The notes beneath the pieces were generated by a model. The model was not told the origin of the DNA. It did no database searches and worked only from the letters and a program-made list of their open reading frames with translations. A stretch of DNA of 20,500 nucleotides from a virus (taxonomy: Duplodnaviria; Heunggongvirae; Uroviricota; Caudoviricetes). Location of the stretch: IMG/VR virus record IMGVR_UViG_2778261532_000014. One strand, 5' to 3'. The stretch's first letter is position 1. Every line of letters begins with the position of its first letter. This document shows positions 1-19,992 of this stretch, one piece after another. The translations under genes and the position numbers were made by a program.

Positions 1-1224
1 ATGGCGCTGTCTGATGCGTGGTTGCGTTCAGTCGTTGGAAAGGAACGTGATAAGGTTTTGGTTAAATCCGATCGTGATGGTCTGTCTGTCAGAGTATCAC
101 CGAAAGGTCGCGTAGTGTTCCAATATCGTTATCAATGGGCAGGGAAAGGTGAGCGTCTTGATATCGGAACTTACCCGGCAACTGGATTAAAAGAGGCCAG
201 AGAAGAAGTTATCCGTCTCCGTGGTGAACTCGAGTCAAACCGTAATCCACGATTGGTCAAGCAGGCTGAAAAACGAAAAGCTACTGAAGCCATGACGGTA
301 GAGTCTGTGATCCGTGCCTGGTATGAAGCATATTGTGTAAAAAATAAAAAAGGCTCTGAACAGATACTCCGCTCGTTTGAGCTGCACCTGTTCTCTAAAA
401 TCGGAAATATCCCTCACGATGCAGCTACATTGCATGATTGGTTAGAAGTCCTGGAGCCTCTTAGCACCAAGACTCCAGCAATAGCAGACCGATTGCTAAT
501 TAACGCAAAGCAGGCCCATGTCTGGGCGTATAAGAGAAAGCTCATTGAAACTCGCCCGCTGTCGGATATCACGGGTAAAGATATGGATATCCGTAAAGGT
601 CAGAAGAAACGGTTTCTGACACATGATGAAATTAAAATCCTTTATGCTGCGATCGATGGTTCTCGAATGGTTCCTAAATACCGGGCCTTCATTAAACTAT
701 TGCTGCATTTTGGCTGCCGTAGTTCAGAGCTAATTACCGCCAGGGTGGACGATTTTGATTTCATTAATAAAGTATGGACTGTACCACCAGAACGACATAA
801 GATTGGGGAGATAACGGGCGAACCGCTAAAGCGGCCCATTATTGAACCGGTTGAAGAGCTTATAAAGTACGCTATTTCTATGAACAATGGTTCCGATATG
901 CTTTTTACTAAGGAAGGAAGCAGGGAACCCGTTGGTCGGACATCATTGCAGTCGCTGCCTTACAATTTAATGCAGTACGCATGGCGGCGTTTGGGGTATC
1001 AATTCCCTCATTGGTCTCTTCATGATTTGAGGCGAACAGCACGAACAAACTTTTCTGATCTTACTGCGCCTCATATTGCAGAAATAATGCTAGGTCATAA
1101 ACTGCCAGGGGTATGGCAAGTTTATGACAAGAGCGATTATCTAGAAGAACAGCGTAAAGCCTACCAGGCATGGTGGGAGAGGGTTGAATTGATAGTTGCT
1201 TGTATTAGCTCAGACCCCAACTGA
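1..1224 (+). CDS. Phage tyrosine integrase (P4/IntA-like site-specific recombinase)
   Basis: 407-aa ORF beginning at window position 1; N-terminal arm-binding-like region; C-terminal catalytic signatures (GCRSSEL Arg box, HDLRRT His-x-x-Arg box, Tyr near C-terminus). May lack a few N-terminal codons if the true start lies upstream of the window. Confidence 0.9.
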   Translation: MALSDAWLRSVVGKERDKVLVKSDRDGLSVRVSPKGRVVFQYRYQWAGKGERLDIGTYPATGLKEAREEVIRLRGELESNRNPRLVKQAEKRKATEAMTVESVIRAWYEAYCVKNKKGSEQILRSFELHLFSKIGNIPHDAATLHDWLEVLEPLSTKTPAIADRLLINAKQAHVWAYKRKLIETRPLSDITGKDMDIRKGQKKRFLTHDEIKILYAAIDGSRMVPKYRAFIKLLLHFGCRSSELITARVDDFDFINKVWTVPPERHKIGEITGEPLKRPIIEPVEELIKYAISMNNGSDMLFTKEGSREPVGRTSLQSLPYNLMQYAWRRLGYQFPHWSLHDLRRTARTNFSDLTAPHIAEIMLGHKLPGVWQVYDKSDYLEEQRKAYQAWWERVELIVACISSDPN

Positions 1225-8117: not shown

Positions 8118-8792
8118 TTAGGCCTTTATTGTGTATCTTCTTGGTTTTCCCGAGAAAATCACTGTACCAATTATAGAGCAATTACCGTTAATCTTAATGT
8201 AAGGCTCAGGCCAGTTTGGGTTTAATGCTTTGAGATAACGCTGTGTTCCATCTTCTATCAACCGCTTGAAGGTGGTTTCGCCTGAATCGTGCATCAATGC
8301 AATAACGTCGTCACCGTGGCAGGCAGGGACTTCAGGATCTACAAAAATCATGTCTCCCGGGCGGTACTCATCAATCATTGAATCACCAATCACCCGCAAG
8401 ATATAAGTCATTTCGCCACAGGGTACAGGGCAGGGATAAGTTTCTGCTGTGCTCAAATCAACCTCAGAATAGCCAACTTCTTTCCATGCTCCGGCCTGTA
8501 CCCATGATATGACAGGGACTAACGTTATTTGTTTGTTAGTAATTGAAACATCAGGTTTTTTTGTGATGTTTGTTGTCTGGTGTTCTTGATCAAGCCATCC
8601 GACAGGCAGGTCGAAACATTTTTCGATGTGCCGTGCCATGCTGTCACCGATATTTTTAGTAGCACCATCTCCCATAAACCTGCTGGTCTGGGTTGGCTCG
8701 CGATCAATCATGGTGGCAAAGGAAGAATTCCCGCCAACACCATCTCTCAGTTTTCTGGCGTTAGACCGCCGGATGTCATGGACTGTTTTCAT
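8118..8792 (-). CDS. CI-like phage repressor (N-terminal HTH, C-terminal S24 LexA-like autopeptidase domain)
   Basis: 224-aa ORF; C-terminal GDSM (Ser nucleophile) and downstream Lys typical of S24 peptidases; divergent from cro. Confidence 0.9.
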   Translation of the reverse strand: MKTVHDIRRSNARKLRDGVGGNSSFATMIDREPTQTSRFMGDGATKNIGDSMARHIEKCFDLPVGWLDQEHQTTNITKKPDVSITNKQITLVPVISWVQAGAWKEVGYSEVDLSTAETYPCPVPCGEMTYILRVIGDSMIDEYRPGDMIFVDPEVPACHGDDVIALMHDSGETTFKRLIEDGTQRYLKALNPNWPEPYIKINGNCSIIGTVIFSGKPRRYTIKA

Positions 8793-8882: not shown

Positions 8883-9083
8883 ATGAAAGCGTATTGGGAC
8901 TCTTTAACCAAAGAACAGCAGGGCGAGTTGGCCGTAAAAGTTGGCTCAACACCAGGCTACTTACGGCTGGTTTTCAATGGTTATAAAAAAGCCAGTTTTG
9001 TGCTGGCTAAAAAACTTGAGCAATGCACGTCAGGTGCAATTACGAAATCTGACTTAAGACCGGATATCTATCCGAAAGATTAA
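8883..9083 (+). CDS. Cro-like HTH regulator
   Basis: 66-aa ORF from ATG 8883 preceded by GGAGG; the 167-aa ORF in the track is an upstream extension antisense to cI. Confidence 0.75.
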   Translation: MKAYWDSLTKEQQGELAVKVGSTPGYLRLVFNGYKKASFVLAKKLEQCTSGAITKSDLRPDIYPKD

Positions 9084-9114
9084 CAGAACACCTTCAATTT
9101 TTAACCACAGAACG

Positions 9115-9678
9115 ATGAGGCTAACCGTGGGTAAGCATCACTGGAAAGTAGAAAAACAGCCTGAGTGGTACGTGAAAGCTGTCAGAAAAACTATCGCGGC
9201 GTTGCCGGGAGGTTACGCTGAAGCTGCTGAGTGGCTGGATGTAACAGAGAACGCTTTATTCAACCGCCTTCGTGCAGATGGCGATCAGATTTTCCCGCTG
9301 GGATGGGCAATGATTTTACAGCGCGCGGCTGGCACTCACTACATTGCGGATGCTGTCGCACAGTCTGCTGATGGGGTGTTTGTATCGCTTCCTGAACTTG
9401 AGGAAGTAGAGAACGCCGATATAAACCAGCGCCTGCTGGAAGTCATCGAACAGATCGGGAGTTACTCAAAGCAGATTCGTTCGGCAATCGAAGATGGGGT
9501 AGTGGAGCCACACGAGCAGACAGCAATTAATGATGAGTTGTATCTGTCAATTTCGAAGCTCCAGGAGCATGCAGCACTGGTCTACAAAATCTTTTGCGCT
9601 CCAGAAAAGAGTGACGCCCGCGAGTGTGCAGCTCCGGGCGTCGTGGCGTTTTGTGTCTGTGGAGAAACTAACGCATGA
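9115..9678 (+). CDS. CII-like phage regulatory protein (CP76/YdaT-like)
   Basis: 187-aa ORF directly after cro; N-terminal region resembles CII-family proteins by recollection; weak RBS; start uncertain. Confidence 0.55.
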   Translation: MRLTVGKHHWKVEKQPEWYVKAVRKTIAALPGGYAEAAEWLDVTENALFNRLRADGDQIFPLGWAMILQRAAGTHYIADAVAQSADGVFVSLPELEEVENADINQRLLEVIEQIGSYSKQIRSAIEDGVVEPHEQTAINDELYLSISKLQEHAALVYKIFCAPEKSDARECAAPGVVAFCVCGETNA

Positions 9679-10511
9679 ACAGTTTAACGGCAAATAACCG
9701 TTTGTCGCAACAGCTGGTGGTCAGTGTCGCTGAACACCTGTTGTTACGGCATGAATGCAGATTACCAAATCACCTGGCTGTAAGTAACCACAGAGAACTT
9801 TACCTGACTGTGGGGGGCGAGTTGTGCAGGAACTTAACCGCTGGTTTCGTGACGGAAGAGGGCTTTATGTCCATGTTATTCGTTGGGAGCCAGAAACACA
9901 GCGCGTTATCTATCTTCGCAAAGACTACCCGCATGAGTGCTTTAGTCCTTTGTGGAAATTCAGGCGTGATTTTGTTGAGTGTGAAGGACCACCAGCACAT
10001 TGATTCTGCCATTCCGGGACGTTACACTGTTCAGGCACCTTATAAAGCGGGTGCCGGGATTGGCGTCCTGGAAATGTTATCGGCGATATATGACGCGCCA
10101 GCGTCTTTTTTATCGTCTGCGTCTGCGCACCCCCAAATTATGGTGGGCTGGACGGGGGCACCGAAAGGTGCGCCGGTTTCCGATAACGCCGGTTACGCCA
10201 ACCCCGTTCAGTTCACCACCAGCGAAATTGGCGTTTCCGGTGGTGAAGGTAATTCACTGTTATCGGAGGCTGTCATCATGGCTACTGTCCCAGCCCTCAC
10301 TCGTCTGAATGATGAAGACTTACATAAACTCAGTTATGTAACAACTGCACTACGTGCTCTGCGCAAGGTAACTCTTTCGGATCCGCAGGCGCATCAGGTT
10401 CTGGTAGAAACCCTTCTTAACTTGCAGGCTGAACGTATTCGTCTGGCGGATAAGGCTAATTTTCATATTCACCGTCTCCTGAATATCAGCGGAGGGCATC
10501 GTCATGCTTAA
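9675..10511 (+). CDS. Hypothetical protein(s); reading frame ambiguous in the first third
   Basis: 278-aa open frame with ATGA and ATGCTTAA overlaps at both ends; region 10010-10511 has clear coding periodicity; a protein-like alternative frame exists at 9788-10003 next to a G6 run (see findings). Confidence 0.45.
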   Translation: MNSLTANNRLSQQLVVSVAEHLLLRHECRLPNHLAVSNHRELYLTVGGELCRNLTAGFVTEEGFMSMLFVGSQKHSALSIFAKTTRMSALVLCGNSGVILLSVKDHQHIDSAIPGRYTVQAPYKAGAGIGVLEMLSAIYDAPASFLSSASAHPQIMVGWTGAPKGAPVSDNAGYANPVQFTTSEIGVSGGEGNSLLSEAVIMATVPALTRLNDEDLHKLSYVTTALRALRKVTLSDPQAHQVLVETLLNLQAERIRLADKANFHIHRLLNISGGHRHA

Positions 10512-10740
10512 TCCGTTGATCCTCAATATTTGCCGTTTGCTTCAGCGTAAAAAAACATCAATTCCTACAGTTGGGCAGTGGTACACCACGCCTGCAGGGC
10601 ATGTTCTACGTGTTAGCCTGGTTGACCGTGAATGCCAGAAGGTGATTTGTGAACCGCTGGGCCGTAATTACCGCGTCATTATGCCGCTTATAGCCTTTCG
10701 CTCCGGAAAAAACATGAAGCATCTCGGAGGTGCAGCATGA
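10504..10740 (+). CDS. Hypothetical small phage protein
   Basis: 78-aa ORF; GGAGGG RBS 7 nt upstream; start/stop overlaps with both neighbours. Confidence 0.55.
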   Translation: MLNPLILNICRLLQRKKTSIPTVGQWYTTPAGHVLRVSLVDRECQKVICEPLGRNYRVIMPLIAFRSGKNMKHLGGAA

Positions 10741-11555
10741 GTATGGAGCTGATGGTTAAAGCGATGAAAATTAGAGTGGGTAATCCATTGCGAAAACTGG
10801 TTCTGATCAAGCTGGCTGATAATGCCAGCGATAAGGGTGAGTGCTGGCCCAGCTACCAGCATATTGCTGACCAGTGCGAGATTAGCAAACGTTCTGTGAT
10901 GAATCATATTGCGGCCCTTTGTGAGTCCGGGCTGGTAAAAAAAGTCACCCGGAAAGGTGAAAAAGGTAACTCAAGTAATATCTATCTCCTTCATCTTGAT
11001 GGTGCAGGAGATTCACTAGGGGGTAGTGCAAATGATTCACTATCTGGTGCAGCAAATTCACCAGGTAGTGCAGGAGTTGCACTTGGGGGTAGTGCAGGAG
11101 ATTCACCCAGAACCAGTCACTCTTTTGAACCAGTCAAAGAACCAGTCAATGAACCAATAGCTGTTGGTGAATCTGCTGATGAGTCTGTGCGAGTTCGTTC
11201 AAACCGACCGGAATACTCTCCGGAGTTTGAGCAGGCATGGCTGGCATACCCCAAACGTGCTGGTGGCAATTCAAAATCTGCAGCCTTCAAAGCCTGGAAA
11301 GCCCGTTTGAATGAGGGGGTAAAACCCGAAACCATGCTGGAAGGTGTGAAACGCTACGCGGGCTGGGTATCTGCGATGGGTAACAGCGGCACACAATTTG
11401 TGAAACAGGCTGTCACGTTCTTTGGTCCGGATCGTCATTTCGAAGAATCCTGGGAAGTTCCTGCGGTATCTGCAGCCAGACGCGAGGACCCGTACTTCAA
11501 AGCCAGTTACGACAACGTGGACTACAGCCAGATCCCGGCAGGATTCAGGGGGTGA
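10737..11555 (+). CDS. Phage replication initiation protein (O-like replisome organizer with N-terminal winged helix)
   Basis: 272-aa ORF; GGAGG RBS; N-terminal HTH segment typical of phage replication initiators; internal DNA iterons consistent with an ori embedded in the initiator gene, as in lambda O. Confidence 0.75.
   Translation: MSMELMVKAMKIRVGNPLRKLVLIKLADNASDKGECWPSYQHIADQCEISKRSVMNHIAALCESGLVKKVTRKGEKGNSSNIYLLHLDGAGDSLGGSANDSLSGAANSPGSAGVALGGSAGDSPRTSHSFEPVKEPVNEPIAVGESADESVRVRSNRPEYSPEFEQAWLAYPKRAGGNSKSAAFKAWKARLNEGVKPETMLEGVKRYAGWVSAMGNSGTQFVKQAVTFFGPDRHFEESWEVPAVSAARREDPYFKASYDNVDYSQIPAGFRG
11001..11160. repeat. Iteron-like direct repeats inside replication gene (putative ori)
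   Basis: About five ~21-bp units with core TGCA-N3-4-ATTCAC (11001-11107) followed by three GAACCAGTCA repeats (11109-11160). Confidence 0.6.
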
Positions 11556-18096: not shown

Positions 18097-18172
18097 GGCC
18101 CTTTAGCTCAGTGGTTAGAGCGAGCGACTCATAATCGCCAGGTCGCTGGTTCAAATCCAGCAAGGGCCACCA
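18097..18172 (+). tRNA. tRNA-Ile2 (anticodon CAU; ileX/ileZ-like; Met not excluded)
   Basis: 76 nt; perfect 7-bp acceptor stem, D-arm GCTC/GAGC, anticodon loop CTCATAA, T-arm GCTGG-TTCAAAT-CCAGC, encoded CCA; close to E. coli ileX as recalled. Confidence 0.85.
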
Positions 18173-18174
18173 TT

Positions 18175-18251
18175 CCGCCACCAGCTCATCTGGATAGAGC
18201 ATCAGCCTTCTAAGTTGATTGTGCGAGGTTCGAGCACCCGGTGGCGGACCA
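18175..18251 (+). tRNA. tRNA-Arg (anticodon UCU, AGA-decoding) with imperfect T-stem
   Basis: 77 nt; perfect acceptor stem CCGCCAC/GTGGCGG, canonical D-arm, anticodon loop CTTCTAA, encoded CCA; T-stem has two mismatches including position 53-61. Confidence 0.6.
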
Positions 18252-19746: not shown

Positions 19747-19992
19747 AAAGTGCACGTCTTGTGCTGGCTGCCATCCTGCTGTTTCTGGTAGTGGCAGTAG
19801 ATTTTGCCGGACGGCTGATGTCGGTTCTGGCTGATGGCGTGCTGGTAGCGATGGTGATGGTTGTTCTCTGGCCTTTACTGCGCAAATCTGAATAACACCA
19901 CACAAAAGGCATCTGTGGGTGCAGGTGTCTTTGACGGGGTGTTTTTTGGTGGGCCGCTGGTGGCTCTTTTTTATTTACAGGAGAAAAAAGGT

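Follow-up and report, generated by a model that had tools for sequence, protein, structure and literature searches.

A 278-codon open reading frame in an e14/SfV-type prophage probably combines a YmfM-like leader, an embedded DUF4222 gene, an isrK/C4 RNA switch and a separate downstream gene

Overview

The DNA analysed here is a stretch of 20,500 nucleotides from a virus of the class Caudoviricetes (IMG/VR record IMGVR_UViG_2778261532_000014), referred to as the window. On its plus strand, an open reading frame (ORF) of 278 codons runs from an ATG at 9675 to 10511; it corresponds to orf37 of phage SfV, which is assigned there to the 'immunity region', and is named 'ash family protein' in many records of the Prokaryotic Genome Annotation Pipeline (PGAP). 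We consider it probable, at roughly 80%, that this ORF is an in-frame chain of distinct elements: a YmfM-like leader, a DUF4222 gene embedded in another frame, an RNA switch made of isrK and C4 RNAs, and a separate gene starting at 10278. Judged from the sequence, there are three initiation contexts, at 9675 (coupled to the upstream gene ymfL), at 9824 (preceded by a run of G) and at 10278. The components are all known (DUF4222, Ash, C4, isrK and YmfM); the novelty lies in a conserved dual coding and in an RNA switch embedded in frame.

A preliminary description of this DNA had reported the 278-amino-acid ATG ORF, which is present in the sequence, and had suspected that the region is something other than one conventional gene, namely two genes, a frameshifted pseudogene or a slippage-prone site. 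The suspicion was well founded, as the alternative-frame peptide is a real gene and 10278 a real start. The observation is thereby confirmed, its frameshift reading is rejected, and its reading of several genes is upheld and extended. The region corresponds to the early-right operon of a lambdoid prophage of the e14/SfV type. Positions 9600–10600 of the window are 100% identical to a prophage in Escherichia coli EC416, and phages 2H10, SfV and Ayreon, together with Stx2c phages, show 92–99% identity to the window.

The embedded DUF4222 gene

The second frame is open from 9788, as had been described, encodes the sequence VQELNRWF...PPAH and ends with a TGA at 10001–10003; a GTG at 9824 opens a gene of 59 amino acids within it (9824–10003, plus strand), which lies inside the long ORF but in its −1 frame. 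Its product matches Pfam family DUF4222 (PF13973) with E = 9.5e-14 and 51.1 bits against a cut-off of 27, residues 3–52 aligning to positions 4–51 of the 53-position profile, and matches phrog_1343 from end to end (1–59 of 59, E = 1.1e-36). A search of NCBIfam returned no match for the 278-amino-acid ORF, the DUF4222 protein, YmfM of E. coli K-12 or the 77-amino-acid ORF at 10278. Homologues of 59 amino acids from Escherichia, Salmonella, Citrobacter, Kosakonia and other genera start at one shared methionine column. Across 32 species-level loci the start codon is ATG, GTG or TTG, with GGAGGG, AAGGAG or GAAGGGG 6–10 nucleotides upstream.

In the window, a run of six G (G6, 9812–9817, plus strand) aligns with this upstream element of the relatives and lies 6 nucleotides 5' of the GTG. 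Its calculated pairing with the anti-Shine-Dalgarno sequence amounts to −9.3 kcal/mol, and −8 kcal/mol is reached by only 4.2% of the positions in 9000–11000. The pairing and the alignment identify the run as the predicted Shine-Dalgarno element of the DUF4222 gene. A fusion of two genes in the way first proposed finds no support: the 59-amino-acid gene has its own start codon and the G run is its ribosome-binding site.

Selection and predicted structure agree with this assignment. Over DUF4222 codons 2–37 in 31 distinct sequences, the ratio of non-synonymous to synonymous differences (pN/pS) is 0.25 in its own frame (pS 0.61), as against 1.30 in the long frame and 1.56 in the third. AlphaFold, given 17 sequences, models the DUF4222 protein as a small SH3/Tudor-like barrel with a predicted local distance difference test score (pLDDT) of 85, as opposed to 26–46 for what the long frame encodes over this DNA. 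The PGAP annotation of the identical EC416 sequence includes the DUF4222 gene and nothing in 9679–9823. We conclude that 9824–10003 is an independent, real DUF4222 gene. The preliminary description had also drawn attention to AGA and AGG codons in both frames, to be decoded by the phage tRNA-Arg(UCU); such codons do occur in both (three in the long ORF, two in the 59-amino-acid ORF), and two tRNA-Arg(tct) genes are present in the window, but this does not discriminate between the frames.

Two variants of this arrangement were observed. In Phytobacter sp. V91 (L097, 1501–1521), DUF4222 has a premature stop at codon 7, and the long frame is still open over its full 115 codons. In Stx1a and Stx2a phages (L118 and L119, 1483–1680), the whole of DUF4222 lies within the 5' portion of an annotated Ant/Rha ORF. 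The latter begins at a Shine-Dalgarno sequence and ATG 18 nucleotides before the DUF4222 ATG; it is without the YmfM N-terminus and follows a different upstream gene.

The enclosing frame

The long ORF follows ymfL, a gene for a CII/CP76-like regulator (9115–9678, plus strand; Pfam Phage_CP76, E = 8.8e-15; NCBIfam phage_reg_YmfL, E = 3e-49), whose TGA (9676–9678) overlaps the ATG at 9675 in an ATGA arrangement typical of coupling. Its first 49 codons or so (9675–9823, plus strand, 'MNSLT...') constitute a YmfM-like N-terminal leader, recognised by an ATGA start like that of K-12 ymfM and by alignment to the YmfM N-terminal domain. An 'MNSLT' ORF that begins at an ATGA overlap with a ymfL homologue and crosses DUF4222 in the +1 frame was found in 32 of 32 species-level loci and in six further phages. 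The window ORF has this same YmfM layout, starting at ymfL with ATGA and running over DUF4222 in the +1 frame, and positions 58–108 of the phrog_1170 (YmfM) profile match its residues 48–98 (E = 1.9e-9).

Outside the window's type, the long frame stops at +157..159 with TAG or TAA, 20 nucleotides before the DUF4222 stop. This holds for 33 of 33 sequences, and the stop is set by a rare ATA, TTA or CTA at DUF4222 codon 53. The window has a GTG (9981–9983, plus strand) in this position instead of a stop, so the frame continues. Alignment and phrog_3960 place the junction of a YmfM-like part of 102 codons and an 'Ash' part of 176 codons here (278 = 102 + 176): phrog_3960, of 176 amino acids, matches residues 103–278, and stand-alone Ash-family proteins start at query residues ~98–104.

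The pN/pS of the long frame is uninformative over the overlap, because the third positions of DUF4222 are the second positions of the long frame; it was set aside, and stop avoidance was used in its place. When DUF4222 was recoded synonymously according to E. coli codon usage, the long frame stayed open in just 2–16% of the trials; it is open in 31 of the 31 distinct sequences observed. At the leucine, valine and isoleucine codons where a stop is at risk, unsafe synonyms account for 0 of 172 observations; GTG, CTG and ATA are common where they are harmless (CTG in 23 of 36 at Leu31, ATA in 9 of 38 at Ile29). As a control, distant stand-alone DUF4222 genes (from phages phiNP, EKP1, LMessi and IME1369_02) contain 3–8 stops in the long frame. 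These comparisons indicate that the long frame is kept free of stops by selection across the DUF4222 gene.

Downstream, the long frame is open through both DUF4222 and the RNA module in 80 of 80 IMG/VR relatives, ending either in a 77-amino-acid tail (33 loci) or in a Rha/Ant-type domain, the latter in ORFs of 382–387 amino acids and two shorter ones. In 11 diverged alleles of the RNA module, neither half has a long-frame stop and the length differences are multiples of three; the other frames have 0–4 stops per half. Selection apparently keeps the long frame open across the RNA cassette too. For the N-terminal domain, the 20 sequences of the type-B relatives, which are sampled best, give a pN/pS of 0.37 in the MNSLT frame, compared with 1.07 and 1.40 in the others.

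The same data bear on the possibility that inheritance and chance alone keep the long frame open, function being limited to DUF4222, the RNAs and the gene at 10278, and 9675–9823 being an untranslated or irrelevant spacer. This would fit the unconstrained long-frame amino acids over the overlap (pN/pS 1.30), the degenerate N-terminus of the window's type, the empty PGAP annotation of 9679–9823 and the survival of frame-breaking alleles. We nevertheless regard it as unlikely: 31–38 distinct sequences show no long-frame stop although DUF4222 is close to saturated at its synonymous sites (pS 0.61); codon choice at the at-risk sites is completely biased; the position of the stop is fixed by rare codons; distant DUF4222 genes do not have the frame open; and the type-B N-terminal domain is under purifying selection.

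Several observations weigh against the proposed chain of elements. The 48-codon N-terminus of the window is without the conserved PVPG and W motifs of the other YmfM types and without a PHROG match, its AlphaFold pLDDT is 26–40, and it may be only a coupling leader. The purifying selection on the N-terminus rests on type B, the window's own type being represented by three sequences that yield no clear pN/pS. Stop avoidance was counted on related sequences; a conservative parsimony count gives 13 third-position changes at at-risk four-fold sites, all of them between T and C, and in column 46 CTG would be safe yet is unused. For the isrK part, the number of effectively independent alleles behind the open frame is small. 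Furthermore, alleles with seven or five G (G7 and G5), which break the long frame, occur naturally, which implies that the prophage can be carried without a continuous frame. Finally, sequence and homology are the basis for every start site, for the promoter and for the repression by C4.

In the leader itself, the first ~39 nucleotides of the long ORF (9675–9713, ATGAACAGTTTAAC...; also in L004 and L085–L117) are far better conserved as DNA across the N-terminal types than the segment that comes next. That following segment is hypervariable and contains insertions and deletions.

A proposed RNA switch under the Ash match

The part of the long ORF that matches the Ash family (Pfam PF10554, Phage_ASH; E = 8e-18, 65.3 bits against a cut-off of 26) comprises residues 117–210, or positions 10023–10304, and covers just two structured RNAs and their targets. 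The first is an isrK/SeqA-like small RNA (10035–10111, plus strand), matched over the full length of Rfam model RF01394 with 63.7 bits against a gathering score of 50; a terminator scan places its intrinsic terminator at a hairpin (10092–10105) followed by T6 (10106–10111). A putative isrK promoter (10000–10028, plus strand) can be read from the sequence, with a −35 box TTGATT (10000–10005), a spacer of 17 nucleotides, a −10 box TACACT (10023–10028) and a predicted start at ~10035. Of the 12 consensus positions it matches 8, and 11 alleles hardly differ in this segment; a promoter scanner run over 9000–11000 reported nothing at its threshold.

The second is a C4 antisense RNA (10136–10223, plus strand) of the kind known as P1/P7 c4, P4 CI and Salmonella STnc1160, matching positions 1–87 of the 87 in Rfam model RF01695 with 82.8 bits against a gathering score of 45. 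Its fold is paired in 297 of 297 cells, eight pairs having compensatory changes; controls slid by 1–3 columns pair in 33–50%.

The C4 RNA carries two sequences with perfect matches of 7–9 nucleotides on either side of it. Its b' loop UCCGAUAAC (10179–10187) is complementary to target b1, GTTATCGG, inside isrK (10076–10083), and likewise to target b2, GTTATCGGA (10259–10267), which overlaps the GGAGG of the ATG at 10278. Its a' sequence ACGCCAA (10195–10201) is complementary to TTGGCGT, found both in isrK as a1 (10060–10066) and downstream as a2 (10228–10234). By complementarity, the downstream target region thus spans 10228–10269 on the plus strand, b2 reaching into the Shine-Dalgarno sequence at 10265–10269. 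The three partners covary across 11 diverged alleles, for b' loop, b1 and b2 as well as for a', a1 and a2; the b' loop, b1 and b2 are CCUUGAUCA, TTGATCAAGG and GATCAAGGAGG in the SfV type and CAUGUGCGA, TTCGCACATG and TTCGCACATGAGG in Citrobacter braakii (L085). The Rfam a1b1 model, RF03163, remained below its gathering score (21.4 against 46.7). From these matches and pairings, we interpret the 'Ash' segment as an RNA switch of the P1-immI/Gifsy-1-isrK type.

Further complementarities of 7–9 nucleotides were noticed. C4 positions 10165–10171 can pair with the 5' end of isrK (10035–10041), and the 3' strand of the outer C4 stem (10212–10220) with GGTGGTGAA downstream (10239–10247). They may permit alternative folds comparable to structures A and B in Gifsy-1.

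No folded domain is predicted under the Ash match (pLDDT 32–51 with 38 aligned sequences), and none of the candidate 'Ash' starts at 9933, 9966 and 9981 has a Shine-Dalgarno sequence (−0.9, −3.3 and −2.5 kcal/mol, respectively). The Phage_ASH family of Pfam looks to be largely a translation of the P1-immI/P4-type RNA immunity cassette. Translation of the segment may still occur, as the frame stays open there. It contains an orf45-like leader ORF over the C4 RNA (10140–10277, plus strand), recognised by M156 and phrog_4908, which has 46 codons from the ATG at 10140 and passes without a stop into the gene that follows, whose frame it shares; M156, encoded by this ATG, is invariant in Ash-family proteins, and phrog_4908 begins there.

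The gene at position 10278

The preliminary description had proposed a well-placed downstream start at 10278, and this has held up. The GGAGG (10265–10269) is predicted to pair with the anti-Shine-Dalgarno sequence at −9.5 kcal/mol, is targeted by C4, and precedes an ATG (10278–10280) that aligns with the start of icd. The resulting gene of 77 codons (10278–10511, plus strand), at the position of icd, is assigned from this Shine-Dalgarno sequence, the alignment with the icd start and an AlphaFold prediction of two helices. The alignment with icd of the P1-like phage 673R5 covers its ATG and first nine codons; the remainder is unrelated, and comparison of the 77-amino-acid product with P1-type Icd revealed no similarity. 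In the AlphaFold model of the long product, pLDDT is 26–51 up to residue 207 and 64–83 for the two helices in the last 77 amino acids. One locus (L124) contains the 77-amino-acid gene standing alone, and in relatives Rha/Ant antirepressor modules take the place of the 77-amino-acid tail.

A mosaic junction is visible at ~10295–10300, 6–9 codons past the ATG at 10278, in the window and in L085, L117–L119 and L005–L084; many BLAST matches end there. A conserved MAT(V/I)P... start is joined at this point to the helical tail of 77 amino acids or to Rha/Ant modules. That the proteins are unrelated after an icd-like start matches a mosaic breakpoint near 10295.

A single conventional 'Ash family' protein of 278 amino acids, with the alternative-frame ORF as a by-product, is another explanation of the long frame. 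It can draw on the frame being open in all relatives, on 'ash family proteins' of the identical length on hundreds to ~1000 contigs, on the single orf37 annotated in SfV and on the Phage_ASH match (E = 8e-18). Homologues, to which the preliminary description had looked for a decision, speak for both frames: the long frame is consistently open in them, but the alternative-frame peptide has many homologues as well. Moreover, purifying selection over 9824–10003 acts in the DUF4222 frame (0.25) and not in the long frame (1.30), DUF4222 also exists as a stand-alone gene and is confidently folded, residues 1–207 have a pLDDT of 26–51 even with 38 aligned sequences, the 'Ash' segment consists of two structured RNAs and a terminator, and a strong internal Shine-Dalgarno sequence precedes an ATG at 10278 that is homologous to the icd start. 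We judge the single protein to be quite improbable.

By analogy with P1 and Gifsy-1, the chain of elements could operate as follows. In the lysogen, transcripts from the promoter at 10000–10028 would give isrK and, through read-through of its terminator, C4. The latter would occlude the Shine-Dalgarno sequence of 10278 and so keep the gene at the icd position, or the antirepressor gene in relatives, switched off. The conservation of the open frame suggests that, on operon transcripts, ribosomes which initiate at 9675 carry on across both the DUF4222 gene and the RNA cassette. More speculatively, such ribosomes may suppress the internal terminator and bypass the block by C4.

The G6 run and the question of frameshifting

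The G6 run had been noted at 9812–9817, where it is indeed seen, together with the remark that one extra G would fuse the first 48 codons to the second frame. Such a fusion of 109 amino acids does exist as a rare natural allele (P0001; 99% identity, 100% coverage, 19 member sequences, 44 contigs), and G7 was verified in three loci (L123–L125). Six G, however, is the fixed allele, which speaks against the frameshift mutation, pseudogene or sequencing error that had been considered: exactly six are found in 82 of the 82 close relatives that carry the flanks, and exact-pattern scans of IMG/VR counted at least 120 contigs for G6, as against 3 for G7 and 1 for G5, G7 and G5 combined making up ~3% of the contigs or fewer. 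The nearest diverged relatives, Citrobacter braakii (L085) and Salmonella phage sal3 (L117), have GGGGGA, followed by TGA or TAA in the second frame directly before the GTG. Because this stop immediately precedes the GTG, an upstream fusion is impossible in both.

Other database proteins that join both frames are singletons in which the frame switches at scattered positions, pointing to sporadic insertions or deletions. Fused proteins of N-terminus and DUF4222 were at one stage taken as support for a frameshift; they were dropped in view of these scattered switch positions and of their being minority alleles.

Programmed −1 ribosomal frameshifting or transcriptional slippage would yield some fusion of N-terminus and DUF4222 beside the long product. 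Read in the zero frame, G GGG GGC (9812–9818) has the form of an X XXY YYZ heptamer, the open stretch of the DUF4222 frame already begins at 9788, and the rare ±1 alleles reveal that the run slips at the DNA level. A slippage-prone site had been suggested, but the heptamer is not conserved: L085 and L117 have GGGGGAT with the immediate stop, and types A–C have nothing comparable. No stimulatory structure was predicted 3' of the run, the downstream fold reaching −15.3 kcal/mol with z = +0.54, and the conserved start codon and Shine-Dalgarno element make frameshifting unnecessary. We therefore think this mechanism very unlikely.

Least credible of all is that the window is a pseudogene, by frameshift mutation or homopolymer sequencing error, of a true gene for the 109-amino-acid fusion: G7 alleles encode exactly that protein (P0001; L123–L125), but G6 far outnumbers G7 (at least 120 contigs against 3) and is present in 82 of 82 relatives, the stop before the DUF4222 GTG rules out the fusion in L085 and L117, all 32 species-level loci have two ORFs in different frames with DUF4222 under its own start, the frame switches of other 'fused' proteins are scattered, and one G7 locus shows a sign of decay in a 216-nucleotide deletion. 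In this locus (L124, 1496–2135), the G7 allele is accompanied by a deletion between CACTGTT repeats that removes isrK and C4 and leaves the Shine-Dalgarno sequence and the 77-amino-acid gene alone.

Comparison with known systems

The RNA cassette of the window resembles the immI region of phages P1 and P7 (c4 - icd - ant). As in immI, there is a full-length C4 fold; a1 and b1 precede it, a2 and b2 are located at the ribosome-binding site of the gene that follows, and the elements share both a strand and their order with those of immI. The DNA aligns colinearly to the immI region of a P1-like phage, at 70.6% identity over 87% of the query, the ATG at 10278 falling on the icd ATG and the first nine codons being conserved. 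That phage, too, has an open orf45-like part in the frame of icd, whereas its isrK part is closed. Unlike P1/P7 immI, the window module is located inside a lambdoid early-right operon, directly after a DUF4222 gene, and is stop-free and in frame with the upstream ORF. Its product is unrelated to Icd beyond codon 9, and no Ant follows in the window, whereas relatives have Rha/Ant.

The isrK-orf45-anrP locus of Gifsy-1 provides a second precedent: there, orf45, which lies over the C4-like RNA STnc1160, is translated and coupled to the antirepressor gene (Hershko-Shalev et al. 2016, PMC4825925). Features in common are an isrK small RNA that ends in a terminator allowing read-through, a short ORF that covers a processed RNA of the C4 kind and has conserved nucleotides but variable amino acids, and dependence of the translation of a downstream regulator on the leader (PMC4825925). 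Orf45 of Gifsy-1 ends in an AUGA overlap with anrP, whereas the orf45-like frame of the window is stop-free into the 10278 gene and also reaches upstream through isrK.

The closest counterpart of the first part of the ORF is ymfM (sfiC) of prophage e14, an SOS-inducible division inhibitor defined by its effect on the FtsZ ring, the formation of which it inhibits on expression (Ansari et al., bioRxiv 10.1101/2020.11.19.390815). Both follow ymfL, start at an ATGA, begin with 'MNSLT', use the frame of the 278-amino-acid ORF and embed a DUF4222 gene. The e14 frame stops 20 nucleotides before the DUF4222 stop and a replication gene comes next, whereas the window has GTG there and continues; its N-terminal 48 amino acids are also without a match to the YmfM profile. 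In K-12 e14 itself (L004, 3323–3661), the curated ymfM occupies the frame for which only stop avoidance is seen, and the strongly conserved DUF4222 in the other frame is unannotated.

A small gene with its own start and Shine-Dalgarno sequence that lies wholly or largely within a longer ORF, in another frame and with both maintained, is familiar from Rz/Rz1 of phage lambda. Here, unlike in Rz/Rz1, the embedded frame bears the amino-acid constraint and the enclosing frame only stop avoidance. Rz and Rz1 differ in a further respect, as we know of no functional link between the DUF4222 and long-frame products.

Meaning for annotation and biology

Databases describe the same DNA in at least three ways: as a 278-amino-acid 'ash family protein', as DUF4222 plus a 192-amino-acid Ash protein, and as 'Rha', 'peptidase' or 'antirepressor'. 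DUF4222 is encoded in 115 phage records, and among the matches listed only one annotates it as such. No paper on this locus or on the overlap of ymfM and DUF4222 came up in a literature search that covered SfV orf37, 'ash family protein' and DUF4222.

The gene ymfM (sfiC), which has been the object of a 35-year search for an inhibitor of division linked to the SOS response, is on this reading dual-coding, and both frames are present in the expression clones that have been published. Studies of ymfM cloned the whole annotated ORF or larger fragments, the embedded DUF4222 (AAGGAG-N8-TTG) included, and the frames were not separated. If the dual-coding reading is true, the active 'YmfM' division inhibitor of e14 may be the DUF4222 protein of 59 amino acids.

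The presence of a P1-type RNA immunity switch in frame within a translated operon frame suggests an interplay of translation and antisense control. If this is correct, read-through ribosomes could unfold the terminator of isrK and evade the block by C4, leading to immunity-insensitive expression of the gene at the antirepressor position during induction. Only tentatively do we extend the conclusion to the clade of enterobacterial lambdoid prophages, in which selection would keep the ymfM/sfiC frame open over DUF4222 and, in SfV- and Stx-type phages, also over the isrK/C4 cassette into the regulated gene.

Neighbouring genes

Upstream of the long ORF are a LexA-family cI-like repressor on the minus strand (8118–8792) and, between it and ymfL, a cro/ymfT-like gene on the plus strand. 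Downstream, also on the plus strand, follow an ORF of 78 amino acids (10504–10740) and an HTH_36/DnaD-type replication gene (10737–11555).

The window has two tRNA-Arg(tct) genes, at 18175–18251 and 19752–19843. The second, found by ARAGORN, has an unusual length of 92 nucleotides and was not reported by the Rfam tRNA model at its gathering threshold. The first belongs to a pair of tRNA-Met and tRNA-Arg genes at 18097–18251 that appears normal.

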